Shown piece after piece: positions 3,368-9,885 of a stretch of 39,899 nucleotides of DNA. Numbering within the stretch: position 1 is the stretch's first letter; each line of letters starts with the position of its first letter. Position numbers and translations under genes: made by a program. The notes below the pieces were generated by a model. That model was not told where the DNA came from, did no database searches, and was given only the letters and a program-made list of their open reading frames with translations. Origin of the DNA: Escherichia phage vB_EcoP-101120B2; sequence record MZ234023.1; one strand, given 5' to 3'.

Positions 3368-5899
3368 ATGTCCACGATTACACAATTCCCTTCAGGAAAC
3401 ACTCAGTACAGGATTGAGTTCGACTACCTAGCCAGAACGTTTGTTGTTGTTACGCTGGTGAATAGCTCTAACCCTACCCTGAACCGTGTACTGGAAGTTG
3501 GTCGAGATTACCGATTCCTTAATCCAACGATGATTGAGATGTTGGTTGACCAATCAGGTTTCGACATAGTTCGTATTCACCGTCAGACTGGAACTGACTT
3601 AGTGGTAGATTTCAGGAATGGCTCAGTGTTGACAGCTAGTGACCTGACCAATTCAGAGCTTCAGGCTATCCATATTGCAGAAGAAGGTCGAGACCAAACG
3701 GTTGACTTAGCGAAGGAATATGCCGATGCTGCTGGTAGCTCTGCTGGCAACGCTAAGGATAGCGAGGACGAAGCACGCCGAATCGCTGCGAGTATCAGGG
3801 AAGCTGGTCTAATTGGCTATATTACCCGTCGCTCCTTCGAGAAAGGCTACAACGTTACAACATGGAGCGAGGTCCTGCTATGGGAAGAGGATGGTGATTA
3901 TTACCGCTGGGATGGTACGCTTCCAAAGAACGTTCCTGCTGGTTCAACTCCTGAAACTTCCGGTGGGATTGGATTAGGTGCGTGGGTTAGTGTTGGTGAT
4001 GCTGCTTTAAGAAGTCAGATTTCAAACCCGGAAGGGGCAATACTCTACCCGGAATTGCAGATGGCAAGATGGCGTGATGAGGGTGATGTTCGAGGCTGGG
4101 GTGCTAAAGGGGATGGTGTAACAGATAGTACGGAGAATATAGCTGCTTCACTAAGTTCTCAAAAAGCTGTCGTAGCATCAGAAGGTGTATTCTCTAGTTC
4201 TGGTATTAATAGTAATTACTGTAACTTAGACGGTAGGGGTAGTGGCGTGCTAAGTCACCGTTCCAGTACAGGTAACTACTTAGTATTTAACAATCCACGT
4301 ACAGGTCGCTTAAGTAATATTACGGTAGAAAGTAATAAGGCGACTGATACAACTCAGGGACAGCAGGTATCTCTTGCGGGTGGAAGCGATGTTACTGTAA
4401 GTGACGTTAACTTCTCAAACGTTAAAGGTACTGGTTTCAGTTTAATCGCATACCCTAATGATGCGCCACCTGATGGACTTATGATTAAAGGCATTCGAGG
4501 TAGCTATTCCGGCTATGCTACTAATAAGGCAGCCGGATGCGTACTTGCTGACTCCTCAGTTAACTCCCTCATAGATAACGTTATTGCTAAGAACTACCCT
4601 CAGTTCGGAGCAGTAGAGTTGAAAGGTACAGCCAGTTACAACATAGTCAGTAATGTTATAGGGGCAGATTGCCAGCATGTAACTTACAACGGCACTGAAG
4701 GGTCAATAGCTCCTTCTAATAACATTATAAAGGGGGTGATGGCTAATAACCCTAAGTATGCAGCGGTTGTTGCAGGCAAAGGAAATACTAACTTAATCTC
4801 AGACGTGCTCGTAGATTACTCAACTTCTGATGCTAGCCAGGCTCATGGCGTTACCGTAGAAGGGTCTGATAACGTCATAAATAATGTGCTTATGTCAGGA
4901 TGTGATGGTACTAACTCTTTAGGACAAGGGCAGACTGCTACAATTGCACGCTTTATAGGTACAGCTAATAACAACTATGCGTCTGTATTTCCTAGCTACA
5001 GTGCTACAGGTGTTATTACTTTCGAATCCGGCTCTACCCGTAACTTCGTAGAGGTAAAACACCCTGGCAGGAGAAACGACCTTCTCAGTTCTGCTAGTAC
5101 TATTGACGGTGCAGCTACTATTGACGGCACTAGTAATAGTAACGTAGTGCACGCACCTGCCTTAGGGCAGTACATAGGTAGTATGTCAGGTAGGTTCGAA
5201 TGGTGGATTAAGTCCATGTCACTCCCTTCAGGCGTTCTTACTTCTGCTGATAAGTACAGAATGCTTGGGGATGGTGCTGTGTCATTAGCTGTAGGTGGTG
5301 GTGCATCTTCTCAAGTTCGACTATTTACTTCTGATGGTATTTATCGGACAGTGTCCCTCACCAACGGCAACGTGCGTCTTCCTACCAGTAGCACAGGTTA
5401 TTTGCAGTTAGGTTCTAATGCAATGACCCCAGATAGTACTAATACATACGCATTAGGTTCCGCAAGTCGAGCATGGTCTGGCGGTTTTACTCAATCAGCA
5501 TTCACTGTTGTCTCAGATGCTAGGGATAAAACAGAGCCTCTTAATATCTCAGATGCTTTACTGGATGCTTGGTCTGAAGTTGACTTTGTGCAGTTTCAGT
5601 ACTTGGACCGAATTGAGGAGAAGGGTGCAGACTCAGCTAGATGGCACTTCGGCATCATCGCTCAGCGAGCTAAGGAGGCCTTCGAACGTCACGGTATAGA
5701 TGCACATCGCTATGGCTTCCTGTGCTTCGACAGTTGGGATGATGTATACGAGGAAGATGCCAATGGCTATCGTAAACTGATTACACCAGCAGGTTCCCGC
5801 TACGGTATTCGTTACGAGGAAGTACTGATATTAGAGGCTGCGTTGATGCGGCGTACTATTAAGCGTATGCAGGAAGCATTAGCTGTTATGTCTAAGTGA
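3368..5899 (+). CDS. Tail fibre / tailspike: gp17-like N-terminal adaptor + putative beta-helix depolymerase domain + C-terminal intramolecular chaperone (peptidase S74-like)
   Basis: 843-aa ORF with AAAGGAGG RBS. N-terminal ~150 aa resemble T7 gp17 (YLARxFVVVTL, LVDFxxGSxL, AEEGRD). Central region has the GWGAKGDGVTD motif typical of pectate-lyase-like tailspikes. C-terminus has the SDARDK motif (5513-5530) and an ~125-aa tail like autoproteolytic chaperone domains of endosialidase-type spikes. Confidence 0.85.
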   Translation: MSTITQFPSGNTQYRIEFDYLARTFVVVTLVNSSNPTLNRVLEVGRDYRFLNPTMIEMLVDQSGFDIVRIHRQTGTDLVVDFRNGSVLTASDLTNSELQAIHIAEEGRDQTVDLAKEYADAAGSSAGNAKDSEDEARRIAASIREAGLIGYITRRSFEKGYNVTTWSEVLLWEEDGDYYRWDGTLPKNVPAGSTPETSGGIGLGAWVSVGDAALRSQISNPEGAILYPELQMARWRDEGDVRGWGAKGDGVTDSTENIAASLSSQKAVVASEGVFSSSGINSNYCNLDGRGSGVLSHRSSTGNYLVFNNPRTGRLSNITVESNKATDTTQGQQVSLAGGSDVTVSDVNFSNVKGTGFSLIAYPNDAPPDGLMIKGIRGSYSGYATNKAAGCVLADSSVNSLIDNVIAKNYPQFGAVELKGTASYNIVSNVIGADCQHVTYNGTEGSIAPSNNIIKGVMANNPKYAAVVAGKGNTNLISDVLVDYSTSDASQAHGVTVEGSDNVINNVLMSGCDGTNSLGQGQTATIARFIGTANNNYASVFPSYSATGVITFESGSTRNFVEVKHPGRRNDLLSSASTIDGAATIDGTSNSNVVHAPALGQYIGSMSGRFEWWIKSMSLPSGVLTSADKYRMLGDGAVSLAVGGGASSQVRLFTSDGIYRTVSLTNGNVRLPTSSTGYLQLGSNAMTPDSTNTYALGSASRAWSGGFTQSAFTVVSDARDKTEPLNISDALLDAWSEVDFVQFQYLDRIEEKGADSARWHFGIIAQRAKEAFERHGIDAHRYGFLCFDSWDDVYEEDANGYRKLITPAGSRYGIRYEEVLILEAALMRRTIKRMQEALAVMSK

Positions 5900-5925
5900 G
5901 TAATACTGGTACGGTATTTCGCACA

Positions 5926-6123
5926 ATGAAATCGTTGAACACACTGACGAGGAGGGTAATGTCACTACTACGGAAGAACCTGTATACACCGAGGTGGTTA
6001 TTCACGAAGAGGGTGAGGAGTGGGGGTGTTCGGCCTGACGGAATTTTCTTTGCTGAAGCCGCTTATCAGAGAAGAAAACTGGAAAGAATCGAAGCCAGAC
6101 TTTCTGCTCTTGAACAGAAGTAA
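5926..6123 (+). CDS. Hypothetical small basic protein (start uncertain: GTG 5896, ATG 5926 or ATG 5959)
   Basis: ORF in a ~330-bp gap between tail fibre and holin that T7 lacks. GAGGAGGG precedes ATG 5959 but with very short spacing. Highly basic, Arg/Lys-rich product. Confidence 0.3.
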   Translation: MKSLNTLTRRVMSLLRKNLYTPRWLFTKRVRSGGVRPDGIFFAEAAYQRRKLERIEARLSALEQK

Positions 6124-6233
6124 TAAACAAAACCATTTTGCCATTAGGTTGGTGGGGTAGAGACTAACTACACGCTAACCAACGTATGTAACAACTTTGG
6201 GTCACGGACGACCCGCTTTAAACTGGAGGTTTT

Positions 6234-6428
6234 ATGATTGAGTTAGACTTCAAGAATGAGGTCCTTAAAGCCTCTCCTATCGTCGGGACCGCTGCGGCTG
6301 ATGGTGCCAGTCGGTTCTTCTTCGGACTTACACTGAACGAATGGTTCTACGTTGCAGCTATCGCGTACACCGTTGTCCAGATTGGTGTGCTAGTCTACAA
6401 AACGATTAAAGGAGGTGGTAAAACATGA
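6234..6428 (+). CDS. Holin (gp17.5-like)
   Basis: 64-aa product MIELDFKNEVLKASPIVGTAAAD...WFYVAAIAYTVVQIG closely resembles recalled T7 gp17.5, with one hydrophobic segment. GGAGG RBS. Confidence 0.8.
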   Translation: MIELDFKNEVLKASPIVGTAAADGASRFFFGLTLNEWFYVAAIAYTVVQIGVLVYKTIKGGGKT

Positions 6429-6688
6429 CGCAGATGGACTTAGAGAAGTTCCTCTTGATGCTGGATACTGAACGTGCTAGACTCATGCTGCAAGACCTGC
6501 GGGATGACTCTAAGCGTTCACCTCAGCTTTACAACGCCATTGAGAAGCTACTGGCTCGTCACAACTTCGTGCTAAGTAAGGTGTCTGTGGACGAGAAGAC
6601 GCTGGCTGATATGGAGGCCCTGAACGCAGAGTACGATAAGGTGCTTTCAGCGACTGAGGATAATGACACCGGGTATGGCGTTCAATAA
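6425..6688 (+). CDS. Terminase small subunit (gp18-like)
   Basis: 87-aa product with FLLMLDTERARLMLQDL...RSPQLYNAIEKLLARH resembling T7 gp18. ATGA overlap with the holin stop. Confidence 0.85.
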   Translation: MTQMDLEKFLLMLDTERARLMLQDLRDDSKRSPQLYNAIEKLLARHNFVLSKVSVDEKTLADMEALNAEYDKVLSATEDNDTGYGVQ

Positions 6689-6694
6689 GTGTTA

Positions 6695-6736
6695 GACTCA
6701 AGGTCATTACTATATGTAGTGGCCTTTATGGTTAAC
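6695..6736 (+). promoter_or_regulatory. Conserved structured RNA element, probable RNase III processing site
   Basis: Motif GACTCAAGGTCAT...GTGGCCTTTATGGTTAAC, one of three near-identical copies (also 16393 and 23617). Resembles T7 R1.1-type RNase III substrates from memory. Confidence 0.4.
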
Positions 6737-6789
6737 ACTAACTAGTGGAGGAGACTCTACGTGAAATCTGATAAACCGGGAGGGCAACT

Positions 6790-7233
6790 ATGCTCGAATT
6801 TTTAAAGAGAGCGGCTCCGTGGTTACTTGCAGCAGTGATGTTTGCTGGTGGCTACCACACCGCTAACAATAAGTGGGAGGCTAAGGTAAATGCAGAATAC
6901 ACCTCGAATCTTAAGGCATCGGAGGATACAAGGCTTGCTGTCCAAGCTGAAGTCAACAAAGTGTCCAAACGGTTTCAGGACGAAATGTCCTCGCTGGAAG
7001 GCAGCACTGACAGGATTATTGCTGACCTTCAGTCTGACAATAAGCGGCTGCGCATCCGAGTCAAACCTACGAGTGGAACCACGCAAAGTGACGGTCGATG
7101 CGTCATTGATGGTTACGCCGAACTTGACGAACGAGATGCTAAACGTCTTATCTCCATCGGACTGAAAGGGGACGCTTGGATTAAAGCACTACAGGATACT
7201 ATCCGCAAACTTCAACAAGACAAGGAGAAATGA
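6790..7233 (+). CDS. Rz-like i-spanin (gp18.5-like)
   Basis: 147-aa product beginning MLEFLKRAAPWLLAAVMFAGG (N-terminal TM) and ending with DAKRLISIGLKGDAWIKALQDTIRKLQ, like recalled T7 gp18.5. Confidence 0.85.
   Translation: MLEFLKRAAPWLLAAVMFAGGYHTANNKWEAKVNAEYTSNLKASEDTRLAVQAEVNKVSKRFQDEMSSLEGSTDRIIADLQSDNKRLRIRVKPTSGTTQSDGRCVIDGYAELDERDAKRLISIGLKGDAWIKALQDTIRKLQQDKEK
6890..7165 (+). CDS. Rz1-like o-spanin (gp18.7-like) embedded in the +1 frame of the Rz gene
   Basis: ORF nested in Rz. Product contains a lipobox-like LTISGC followed by ASES and SLMVTPNLTNEMLNV, matching recalled T7 gp18.7. Exact start uncertain. Confidence 0.7.
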   Translation: MQNTPRILRHRRIQGLLSKLKSTKCPNGFRTKCPRWKAALTGLLLTFSLTISGCASESNLRVEPRKVTVDASLMVTPNLTNEMLNVLSPSD

Positions 7234-7670
7234 TGCTCAGTGATTCGTATTTCTATGATGAGTCCAGTAAGTCTGGCCTGAAGTCCCTGCGTTCTGGTAA
7301 GGATGTGGGGTGTGTGGGAAACCACGGGTATTATCAGGTAGGAACTCGACGTCATGGACTCCTGCTGGCCCATAGAGTCGTCTGGGAGCTAACCAACGGT
7401 CCTATACCAGAAGGGATGGAGATTGACCATATCGACCGCTGCCGGACTAACAACAGGCTGGACAACCTCCGGCTAGTTACTTCAAGCGAGAACTCCTGCA
7501 ACACCTCAGGACATTCCGACTCAAAGACTGGAGTTAAGAACATATCGTTCCATCAGAATGGCTACGCTATCGAGGTCATGCGTAAGGGGGTCCGTATGCG
7601 AACAACACGTCCTACTTTAGAGGAGGCTATCTCTGTCCGGGACCTAATGCTGGAGGGACTCTATGTCTAA
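7230..7670 (+). CDS. HNH homing endonuclease with C-terminal AP2-like DNA-binding domain
   Basis: 146-aa ORF with ATGA overlap to Rz stop and 8-nt overlap with large terminase start. HNH-like motif [26 protein letters not shown]-terminal [33 protein letters not shown] resembles AP2 domains. No counterpart at this position in T7. Confidence 0.75.
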
Positions 7671-9429
7671 GAAAACACCTGCTGAAAGACAGGCTGAAAT
7701 GACCCAAAGGATGAGGGACGACTTCGTGTTCTTCATCTTCGTTCTCTGGAAAGCGCTGAGCCTTCCGGTTCCAACCAGATGTCAGATAGATATGTGTAAG
7801 AAGCTGGCTGCTGGCGATAACCGACGCTTCATCCTTCAGGCGTTCCGAGGTATTGGCAAATCGTTTCTGACCTGTGGTTTCGTGGTCTGGAAGCTATGGA
7901 ATAACCCAGACTTGAAGTTCATGATTGTGTCGGCCTCAAAGGAGCGAGCCGATGCTAACTCCATCTTCATCAAGCGAATCATCGACCTCATGCCTCAGCT
8001 TCAGGAACTCAAACCTAAGCAGGGACAGCGAGATGCGGTTATTAGCTTCGACGTGGGACCTGCCAAGCCAGACCACTCACCTTCGGTTAAGTCCGTTGGT
8101 ATCACTGGTCAGTTGACTGGTAGTCGTGCTGACATCCTGATTGCCGATGACGTGGAGGTTCCGAACAACTCAGCGACTCAGGCTGCACGAGACCGTCTAT
8201 CAGAGCTTGTGAAAGAGTTCGACGCTATCCTGAAGCCGGGAGGTACGATCATCTATCTGGGTACTCCTCAGAACGAGATGACCCTGTACCGTGAGCTGGA
8301 AGGTCGTGGGTACACCACTACTATCTGGCCCGCTCGTTATCCACGCGACAGGAAGGACTGGCAGTCTTACGGCGACCGTCTGGCTCCTATGCTTCAGGCA
8401 GAGCTGGAAGAGGACCCTGAGTCCTTCTACTGGCGTCCGACTGATGAAGTACGCTTCGATGATACGGACCTGAAGGAACGTGAGCTGTCCTACGGTAAAG
8501 CTGGCTTCGCTCTACAGTTCATGCTTAACCCGAACCTGAGTGATGCCGAGAAGTACCCTCTTAAGCTCCGTGACCTTATCGTAGCCGACTTGGACCCAGC
8601 GTCCAGCCCAATGGCCTACCAATGGTTGCCGAACCCTCAGAACAAGCGTGAGGACGTTCCTAACGTTGGACTCATGGGTGACTCGTACCACACGTATCAG
8701 ACTGTAGGTTCTGCCTTCAGCTCATACACCCAGAAGATTCTGGTCATTGACCCTAGTGGTCGTGGTAAGGATGAAACTGGATATGCGGTACTGTACCAGC
8801 TCAACGGCTACATCTTCGCTATGGAAGTTGGTGGCATGCGTGGTGGTTATGAATACTCTACGCTGGAAGCCTTGGCTAAGATTGGTCGTAAGTGGAGGGT
8901 AAACGAATACGTCATTGAGGGTAACTTCGGTGATGGTATGTACCTTGAGCTATTCAAGCCTGCATCGGCCCGTATCCATCCTGCGGCTGTAACTGAAGTG
9001 AAGAGTAAGGGTCAGAAAGAACTACGCATCTGTGACGTTCTGGAGCCTATCATGGGGTCTCACAGACTTATCGTTAACGCTGCTGCTATCGTCCAAGACT
9101 ACCAGACAGCCTCTGACAAGGATGGTGTTCGTAACCCTATCTACTCTCTATTCTATCAGATGACACGTATCTCTCGTGAGCGTGGAGCCTTGGCACACGA
9201 TGACCGACTTGATGCGCTGGCTATCGGTGTACAGTTCTTCGTTGAGTCGATGGCTAAGGATGCCAACAAAGGCGAACGTGAAGTCACTGAGGAATGGCTG
9301 GAGGAACAGATGGAGAACCCACGGAAAGGCTTCGAGTCCATCCACACTGAGTTCTGGGACAATGGGGTCCGGGTAACTCACGATACGGACGACGAGCTTG
9401 GACTAGGGTCATACGTTACGTTCCACTAG
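7663..9429 (+). CDS. Terminase large subunit (gp19-like)
   Basis: 588-aa ORF, size and sequence similar to recalled T7 gp19 (ATPase and nuclease regions). GGAGGG RBS. Confidence 0.9.
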
Positions 9430-9524
9430 CTGAATGAATAATTATAGGTGAAAGCCGCATGAATACGCGGTTAGTAACCTATAGTTACTACCAGTCTAAC
9501 ATACTGTTTTACAAGGAGTTTGGA

Positions 9525-9547
9525 CTTAACTATCACTATAGGGAAGA
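9525..9547 (+). promoter_or_regulatory. Phage RNAP promoter (phiOR equivalent)
   Basis: CTTAACTATCACTATAGGGAAG downstream of terminase, position equivalent to T7 phiOR. Confidence 0.65.
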
Positions 9548-9726
9548 CCCCCGGTTACTTATAGTATTACTGTAGTGAATATACATATGCAGACTTTATG
9601 CAAGACCTTAGGAGGCAGACTCCGAGTTCTTACCTAAGGCTTGCACCGATGGAAGGAGGGTGATATTAATCATAATCCCTCCAATACAGATAGTCACCGA
9701 CCATAGATACAGGAGGTATGTAGCAT

Positions 9727-9885
9727 ATGGCAAAGACCAAAGCTGTACTTAAAGCTCTGGCGACCAATCGAGCTACATACAGGTTTCTTGCTGCTGTTCT
9801 ACTTGCTGCTGGCGTTACTGCTGGAAGTCAGTGGGTCGGGTGGGTCGAGACTCTCGTATGTTCTCTGGTGTCTGAGTGTCGTTAA
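9727..9885 (+). CDS. Small membrane protein (gene 19.5-position ORF)
   Basis: 52-aa ORF (below the ORF-track cutoff) with AGGAGG RBS 10 nt upstream. Hydrophobic core FLAAVLLAAGVTAGSQWVGWV. Sits downstream of the phiOR-like promoter as T7 gene 19.5 does. Confidence 0.4.
   Translation: MAKTKAVLKALATNRATYRFLAAVLLAAGVTAGSQWVGWVETLVCSLVSECR

Follow-up and report, generated by a model that had tools for sequence, protein, structure and literature searches.

What is a gene doing at a position that is empty in T7, and is it there for the benefit of the phage or for its own? The question is raised by an open reading frame of Escherichia phage vB_EcoP-101120B2 that lies between the genes for the spanin and the large terminase subunit. 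In T7 these two genes, 18.5 and 19, are separated by 21 nt only, as was implied when the preliminary description of this DNA called the position empty in T7. The window analysed here is the whole stretch of 39,899 nt.

The frame runs from 7230 to 7670 on the plus strand and encodes 146 aa when read from the ATG at 7230; its product in GenBank is 'HNH homing endonuclease'. There are two candidate starts, ATG 7230 and ATG 7233, the latter giving 145 aa. The true start is probably ATG 7233, in agreement with GenBank, because the Shine-Dalgarno sequence AAGGAG (7222..7227, plus strand; located from the sequence, the junction alignments and the edge of BLAST homology) leaves a spacing of only 2 nt to the first ATG, against 5 nt to the second. 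The gene is tightly fitted between its neighbours, as previously described. The stop codon of the Rz gene (TGA, 7231-7233) overlaps both candidate ATGs, and the HNH stop codon (TAA, 7668-7670) falls within codons 2-3 of the terminase gene, which starts at ATG 7663, so that these two genes overlap by 8 nt. The terminase Shine-Dalgarno sequence GGAGGG (7652..7657, plus strand) is located inside the last HNH codons, 5 nt before ATG 7663.

The identity of the neighbours is also as described earlier. Upstream is the Rz-like i-spanin gene (gp18.5; 6790..7233, plus strand; phrog_1327, E 7e-61; phrog_4306, E 1.7e-36; GenBank), with the Rz1 o-spanin gene embedded in it at 6890..7165. Downstream is the gene for a T7-type large terminase subunit (gp19; 7663..9429, plus strand; PF22530, E 1.9e-36). 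A foreign base composition of the HNH gene is ruled out, its GC content (51.6%) being like that of the genome (49.9%).

Between 6200 and 9500 the window is 100% identical to MZ234022.1 (vB_EcoP-101120B1-2; Autographiviridae, Studiervirinae, Kayfunavirus). The window is 54 nt longer than this record (39,899 nt vs 39,845 nt). The coordinates of one gene of MZ234022.1, 20359-20850, give no open frame in the window, and there is therefore an indel somewhere between 9500 and 20359.

The nuclease domain was readily identified by the domain search that had been proposed for it. Pfam HNH_3 (PF13392) matches residues 46-89 (nt 7365-7496, plus strand), the HNH_3 or HNN nuclease core, with E 1.8e-21 and 75.9 bits against a cut-off of 24.8, well outside what chance would give, and none of the other Pfam HNH families matches the protein. 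PHROGs assigns it to phrog_99, HNH endonuclease (E 7.5e-45). The sole match among PDB sequences is I-HmuI (1U3E; E 0.0026, residues 9-92); a structural similarity to I-HmuI was also found, and residues 1-45 form a β-rich N-terminal region like that of I-HmuI. In the alignment, D66, H67, N75 and N88 of the window protein correspond to D74, H75, N83 and N96 of I-HmuI, and D66, H67, N75, N79 and N91 are invariant among 28 homologues. Enzymes of the I-HmuI type are reportedly strand-specific nickases, and the roles of the I-HmuI residues are likewise reported (Shen et al. 2004). The HNH protein is under purifying selection, since dN/dS of its gene is 0.05-0.27 against five alleles; against a copy in Citrobacter phage NS1, described below, it is 0.046 at a dS of 0.46. 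The prediction that the protein is an HNH_3, I-HmuI-like His-Me finger endonuclease (group 2 of PMC5714182) is well supported.

The C-terminal part (residues ~100-141, nt ~7527-7652, plus strand) had been described as AP2-like, and here the fold agrees with that description although the Pfam AP2 family does not match. Pfam AP2 (PF00847) gave no match to the whole protein at E<=0.1, nor to the C-terminal fragment of residues 91-146 even at E<=10, and a profile of the C-terminal domain searched against PDB sequences found no AP2 protein. The structure model has three strands and a helix in residues 105-141, and this three-stranded antiparallel sheet packed on one helix superposes on solved AP2 domains. 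Furthermore, Pfam AP2 matches 7 of the 28 aligned homologues, in the aligned columns, with E from 1e-3 to 9e-7, all below the gathering score of 33.3 bits, and hhalign of the two C-terminal profiles gives a probability of 77.6% (E 1.9e-5). Because the Pfam AP2 and PDB-profile searches found nothing, the assignment is based on the fold and the intermediate homologues. On the model, the C-terminal part is a diverged AP2-fold domain, predicted to bind DNA. Of the domain architecture proposed earlier, the HNH half is thus confirmed, and the AP2 half holds in part, as an AP2-type fold without a Pfam AP2 match.

If the gene is mobile, related phages should exist without it, and the alignment of genomes with and without the insert that had been proposed now defines its exact junctions. 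A probe of 431 nt across the Rz/terminase junction of phage LNA5 was used to find empty sites, a record being counted when the probe was covered in one place. The junction is uninterrupted in 124 phage records, including the type species K1F, and carries the HNH gene in 56, so that insert-free alleles are plentiful among close relatives. The 56 consist of 39 type A records (at least 90% aa identity to the window HNH) and 17 type B records (60-80% aa identity, for example CR44b and Hafnia phage Ca), type B being a sister allele that is 66% identical.

The empty alleles are of two kinds. In the K1F type, here called e1, Rz and terminase overlap by TTGA, and the terminase has a TTG start behind AAGGAGGTGA, its protein beginning LSKDLVARQALMTAR; the sequence of the empty junction reads ...AAGGAGGTGACGCATTGAGTAAAGACTTAGTGGCGCGTCAGGCGCTAATGAC.... 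In the IME177 type, e2, which is found in IME177 and about six others, the 5′ end of terminase is of the kind otherwise linked to the HNH gene, with no HNH gene present. Here Rz ends with the very TAA at which the HNH gene stops in occupied alleles, the GTG start of terminase corresponds to the codon with which type B HNH starts, and terminase follows Rz directly, with none of the mini-ORFs described below. As judged from the alignments, e2 could be either the cognate empty site or the result of a precise loss. Because the IME177-type alleles carry this 5′ end without an HNH gene, its presence is no strict marker for the element.

Comparison with the e1 alleles reveals how the gene is fitted in. 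BLAST homology to them stops at 7227-7229, just past AAGGAG, and resumes at ~7690-7711. In the K1F-type empty alleles AAGGAG(G) serves the TTG start of terminase. Because the cassette begins directly past this Shine-Dalgarno sequence, the junction alignments show the HNH gene to have taken over the predicted ribosome-binding site of terminase in K1F-type alleles. In exchange, the cassette brings its own Shine-Dalgarno sequence (GGAGGG), an ATG, and the opening ~15 codons of terminase in a diverged form. Terminase expression is therefore kept, and both neighbours are overlapped. This cassette-linked terminase 5′ end with its ATG start (7663..7710, plus strand; from BLAST and alignment) replaces the TTG-start version of the K1F-type alleles and travels with HNH: it is 96-100% identical in every HNH-bearing allele of either type, and has no BLAST match in any e1 allele. 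The GGAGGG is kept in all HNH-bearing alleles and in all alleles that retain only a remnant of the gene.

An intron-encoded homing endonuclease was considered and rejected. No Rfam family was matched at E<=0.1 within 5800-9800 of the window, and Rz and terminase are complete on both sides of the gene.

The junction also has other contents. Phages P762 and CLB_P1 have an unrelated ORF of 263 aa at the same Rz/terminase junction. That of P762 (locus L003, 1536-2327) contains no Pfam domain, and in CLB_P1 it is annotated as 'putative protease'; the C-terminal half of the 263-aa ORF shares 30-35% identity with proteins from N4-like phages and from Aeromonas phages. In EcoDS1-type phages there is an ORF of 53 aa at the junction. 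Judged by these genomes, the Rz/terminase junction is a hotspot at which extra genes of various kinds settle.

The clearest sign of movement comes from Citrobacter phage CR8, which belongs to a different genus, Caroctavirus. Its HNH gene is 98.6% identical to that of the window in nucleotide sequence, and identity continues at ~100% to ~7930, that is, over the first ~270 nt of terminase. The flanks are only 71-85% identical (Rz 71%, distal terminase ~78%), with a sharp left edge at ~7225. A sliding identity profile places the shared cassette at about 7228-7930, 98-100% identical. The first ~270 nt of terminase thus appear to have been transferred together with the HNH gene. PRF-SP1 presents the same sharp left edge, with 98.4% identity in HNH against 72% in Rz. 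Such a one-sided tract of identity would fit a recent transfer with co-conversion into terminase.

A copy is also found at a second site. In Citrobacter phage NS1 (MN715150.2; locus L004, 1417-2091) a copy of window positions 7231-7708, 90% identical in nucleotide sequence, lies between gp17 and the holin gene. It consists of the HNH gene and the first 46 nt of terminase, and is flanked by an imperfect direct repeat of ~85 nt of the intergenic region. The terminase gene of NS1 itself has a third N-terminal variant, with a tandem duplication of GTCAGTAC. A search for other phages with HNH between gp17 and the holin gene found none, and limited weight is given to the ectopic copy because the arrangement rests on one record.

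More distant relatives of the protein, which are 62-81% identical and come from distant T7-like contigs and Aeromonas phage PT2, are always encoded directly before a T7-type terminase. They share the 8-nt ATGNNTAA overlap with terminase even though the upstream genes differ.

In other records the gene has been largely lost. Ro45lw, Penshu1 and KM02 have remnants of type B HNH, comprising the first 6-9 and last 8-17 codons (17-23 codons in all). Two types of scar can be distinguished. In Ro45lw (locus L018, 1144-1215) there is an open mini-ORF of 23 codons, in which an additional deletion of 1 nt restores the frame, while Penshu1 and KM02 (loci L019 and L020, both 1163-1216) have an open mini-ORF of 17 codons, whose scar corresponds to removal of the 385-nt interval between two copies of GGACC. 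Both kinds of mini-ORF begin at the HNH start codon and end in the same ATGTCTAA overlap with the terminase gene, which points to selection for keeping translation going up to the start of terminase. Since these scars exist, the HNH gene is dispensable. Read in this way from the alignments, the three scars are the decay stage of a presumed homing cycle.

A deletion has also been described in Hafnia phage Ca, in which a variant of the homing endonuclease gene with a 397-bp deletion arose spontaneously and was linked to small plaques (PMC8861465). No repeat of at least 5 nt occurs at that spacing in the deposited record. It is worth adding that the record for Hafnia phage yong1/Ca (MK610268.1; locus L010, ~2480-2490) has one extra T compared with CR44b, which shifts the HNH frame after 19 codons; this is why the homing endonuclease annotated in MK610268.1 consists of just the final 45 codons.

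On the basis of these observations, we consider it likely that this ORF encodes a free-standing homing endonuclease, I-HmuI-like and of the HNH_3 ('HNN') class, with a divergent AP2-fold domain, and that it sits in a compact cassette where the terminase gene begins. The transfer involving CR8, the second allele, the scars and the ectopic copy in NS1 all favour the mobile HNH gene that had originally been suggested, as far as sequence comparison can take it. We hypothesise that in a mixed infection the enzyme would recognise and nick or cut an HNH-free allele, at a sequence located either in the Rz/terminase junction or in the ~270 nt with which terminase begins. A nick would be converted to a break by replication, whereupon recombinational repair, with the HNH-bearing genome as template, would copy the cassette and neighbouring terminase sequence into the broken one. 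The carrier itself would escape cleavage by virtue of the diverged 5′ end of terminase that comes with the cassette. A search for the target site yielded none, the polymorphisms among terminase nt 1-400 being mosaic, with no clean split by HNH status: LNA5 and Seyj3-1 are HNH-free yet have cassette-like downstream sequence, and Ro45lw combines a type B scar with type A downstream sequence. The genome-typical GC content, and the same position over a deep divergence, could also fit a long vertical residence.

Other explanations give the gene a function for the phage, or none at all. The HNH protein might be a packaging cofactor of terminase, like HK97 gp74; it would then stimulate or complete the cutting of concatemers by terminase, and its gene would be placed beside that of terminase for this reason. 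The gene does adjoin and overlap the large terminase gene, and its position is kept across distant T7-like phages; in addition, Hafnia phage Ca genomes without the gene were enriched in small plaques, for which the authors raised this idea, citing Kala et al. 2014 (PMC8861465). However, the 124 relatives with an uninterrupted junction, including K1F, have no gene there and neither does T7, while Ro45lw, Penshu1 and KM02 were isolated and propagate with only 17-23 of its codons. The domain is moreover HNH_3, like that of I-HmuI, with a predicted sequence-specific DNA-binding module, and the other Pfam HNH families are unmatched; and the terminase is of the T7 type (PF22530), whereas PMC8861465 ascribes dependence on gp74-type proteins to the Terminase_1 family, in long-tailed phages. 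The HNH-free and scar alleles appear largely to refute a cofactor role, which we regard as very improbable. The idea that the gene is an inactive relic of a homing endonuclease, no longer able to cut and persisting by linkage to terminase, can point to its genome-like GC content and to the decay of related copies, including the frameshift in the deposited yong1 record. It is just as hard to uphold, and we give it hardly any credence: the residues at the catalytic positions are all intact and invariant, dN/dS is far below 1, including the value against the NS1 copy, and the transfer into CR8 was very recent, as judged from the 98.6% identity against 71-85% in the flanks.

It is less improbable, although still unlikely, that the gene is kept because it benefits its carrier and not by homing alone, either (a) as a weapon against co-infecting HNH-free relatives, or (b) because translation of terminase has come to depend on the upstream ORF. 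Purifying selection on the protein is compatible with such a benefit. So is the capture by the cassette of the terminase ribosome-binding site and its supply of a new one, and so are the two independent scar types, both of which keep a mini-ORF to the ATGTCTAA overlap, in Ro45lw by way of the compensating 1-nt deletion. The small-plaque deletion variant of Hafnia phage Ca (PMC8861465) points the same way, but the plaque data in that paper are correlative. Form (a) has the same mechanism as homing, and because of this identity the two are inseparable by sequence data. As for form (b), two frame-preserving scars make for weak statistics, with a chance expectation of about 1 in 9, and the IME177-type alleles express terminase right after Rz without any mini-ORF. 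A particular version of dependence deserves mention, namely that terminase expression is translationally coupled to the selfish gene. This would be a form of genetic addiction that makes the cassette hard to lose, and we consider it a real possibility, though a doubtful one. The cassette uses the ribosome-binding site of terminase in empty alleles and, in its type B form, even the codon at which terminase begins there, so that terminase has to start inside the HNH frame. Coupling, if true, would also account for the small plaques seen with the deletion variant of Hafnia phage Ca.

Homing by a free-standing endonuclease, the reading preferred here, places the gene among systems that have already been described, and the gene itself is already known: it has a GenBank annotation, there are named orthologues in CR8 and CR44b, and a sister allele is in print. 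QZI79754.1, 'HNH homing endonuclease' of MZ234022.1, has the same sequence and the same position as the window gene, and is an annotation-level record. Gene 3.8A of CR8, a 'predicted homing endonuclease', is the 98.6% identical copy already discussed, and lies between gene 18.5 and gene 19 with the same overlaps; gene 3.8A of CR44b, likewise a 'predicted homing endonuclease', is the 66%-identical sister allele. The sister allele of Hafnia phage Ca (MK610268) has been published as a homing endonuclease gene (PMC8861465). It occupies the same Rz/terminase site, overlaps both neighbours and is followed by the same terminase 5′ variant, and differs in being a type B allele, with about 65% aa identity.

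Free-standing HNN-AP2 endonucleases are a described class of phage enzymes (PMC2248197, PMC5714182), and those of Xp10/OP1/Xop411, T5 and T1 (PMC2248197; Magnani et al. 2004), as well as T7 gp3.8, have the same architecture of HNN core and AP2-type domain. A sporadic distribution, and degeneration after spread, have been reported for them (PMC2248197). The window clade differs in being fixed at the terminase 5′ end, whereas the HNN-AP2 copies of Xanthomonas phages are scattered, and its AP2 domain, unlike those of the described class, is too diverged for Pfam. I-HmuI itself, from Bacillus phage SPO1, is an intron-encoded nicking enzyme with ~21% identity to the product of the free-standing window gene, and its C-terminus is of the helix-turn-helix type, compared with the AP2 fold of the window protein. 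The closest T7 paralogue is gp3.8, with 48% identity across 60 residues (E 5e-18); its gene lies upstream of gene 4.

As for the earlier statement that HNH genes beside terminase genes are a recurrent arrangement in phages, the literature for it, Kala et al. 2014 as cited in PMC8861465, concerns a different HNH class, namely terminase cofactors, a role that finds no support here. The proteins of the HK97 gp74 type (Kala et al. 2014; Moodley et al. 2012) are likewise small HNH proteins encoded beside terminase. They belong to another HNH family, carry no sequence-specific DNA-binding domain, work with enzymes of the Terminase_1 type, and are both conserved and required, none of which applies to the window gene. 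The latter is not universal with its terminase type: most Kayfunavirus records lack it, as does T7, and it is deleted in viable isolates.

The fine anatomy of the cassette and the series of alleles are thus useful detail, and do not amount to a new kind of system. What they provide is a natural series at one site, with two kinds of empty allele, two diverged occupied alleles, a very recent transfer between genera that left a one-sided co-conversion tract, two independent types of scar and an ectopic copy. The locus would be a convenient model for homing, and for its costs and benefits, in T7-like phages. Kayfunavirus phages are also used in therapy cocktails, and elements of this kind drive recombination around the essential terminase gene during co-infection.

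Some further HNH genes and one further record were noted in the course of the searches. A relative of the HNH protein with 43% identity (loci L026 and L027, 3001-3438) is encoded directly before the DNA ligase gene of T7-like contigs, with an overlap of 11 nt, and is preceded by a T7-like promoter-like sequence, taatacgactcagtatagggat, an arrangement that repeats the one at terminase beside a different conserved gene. A second HNH_3 gene, '3.8B', follows directly after terminase in CR44b (locus L007, 4709-5125) and in a metagenomic T7-like contig (locus L024, 5201-5725); the window has no gene of the '3.8B' type after 9429. Finally, OR786095.1, deposited as 'Staphylococcus phage MBBL139' with S. 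aureus as host, is 88-100% identical to the Rz-HNH-terminase region of Kayfunavirus, and either its host label or the sample looks to be wrong.
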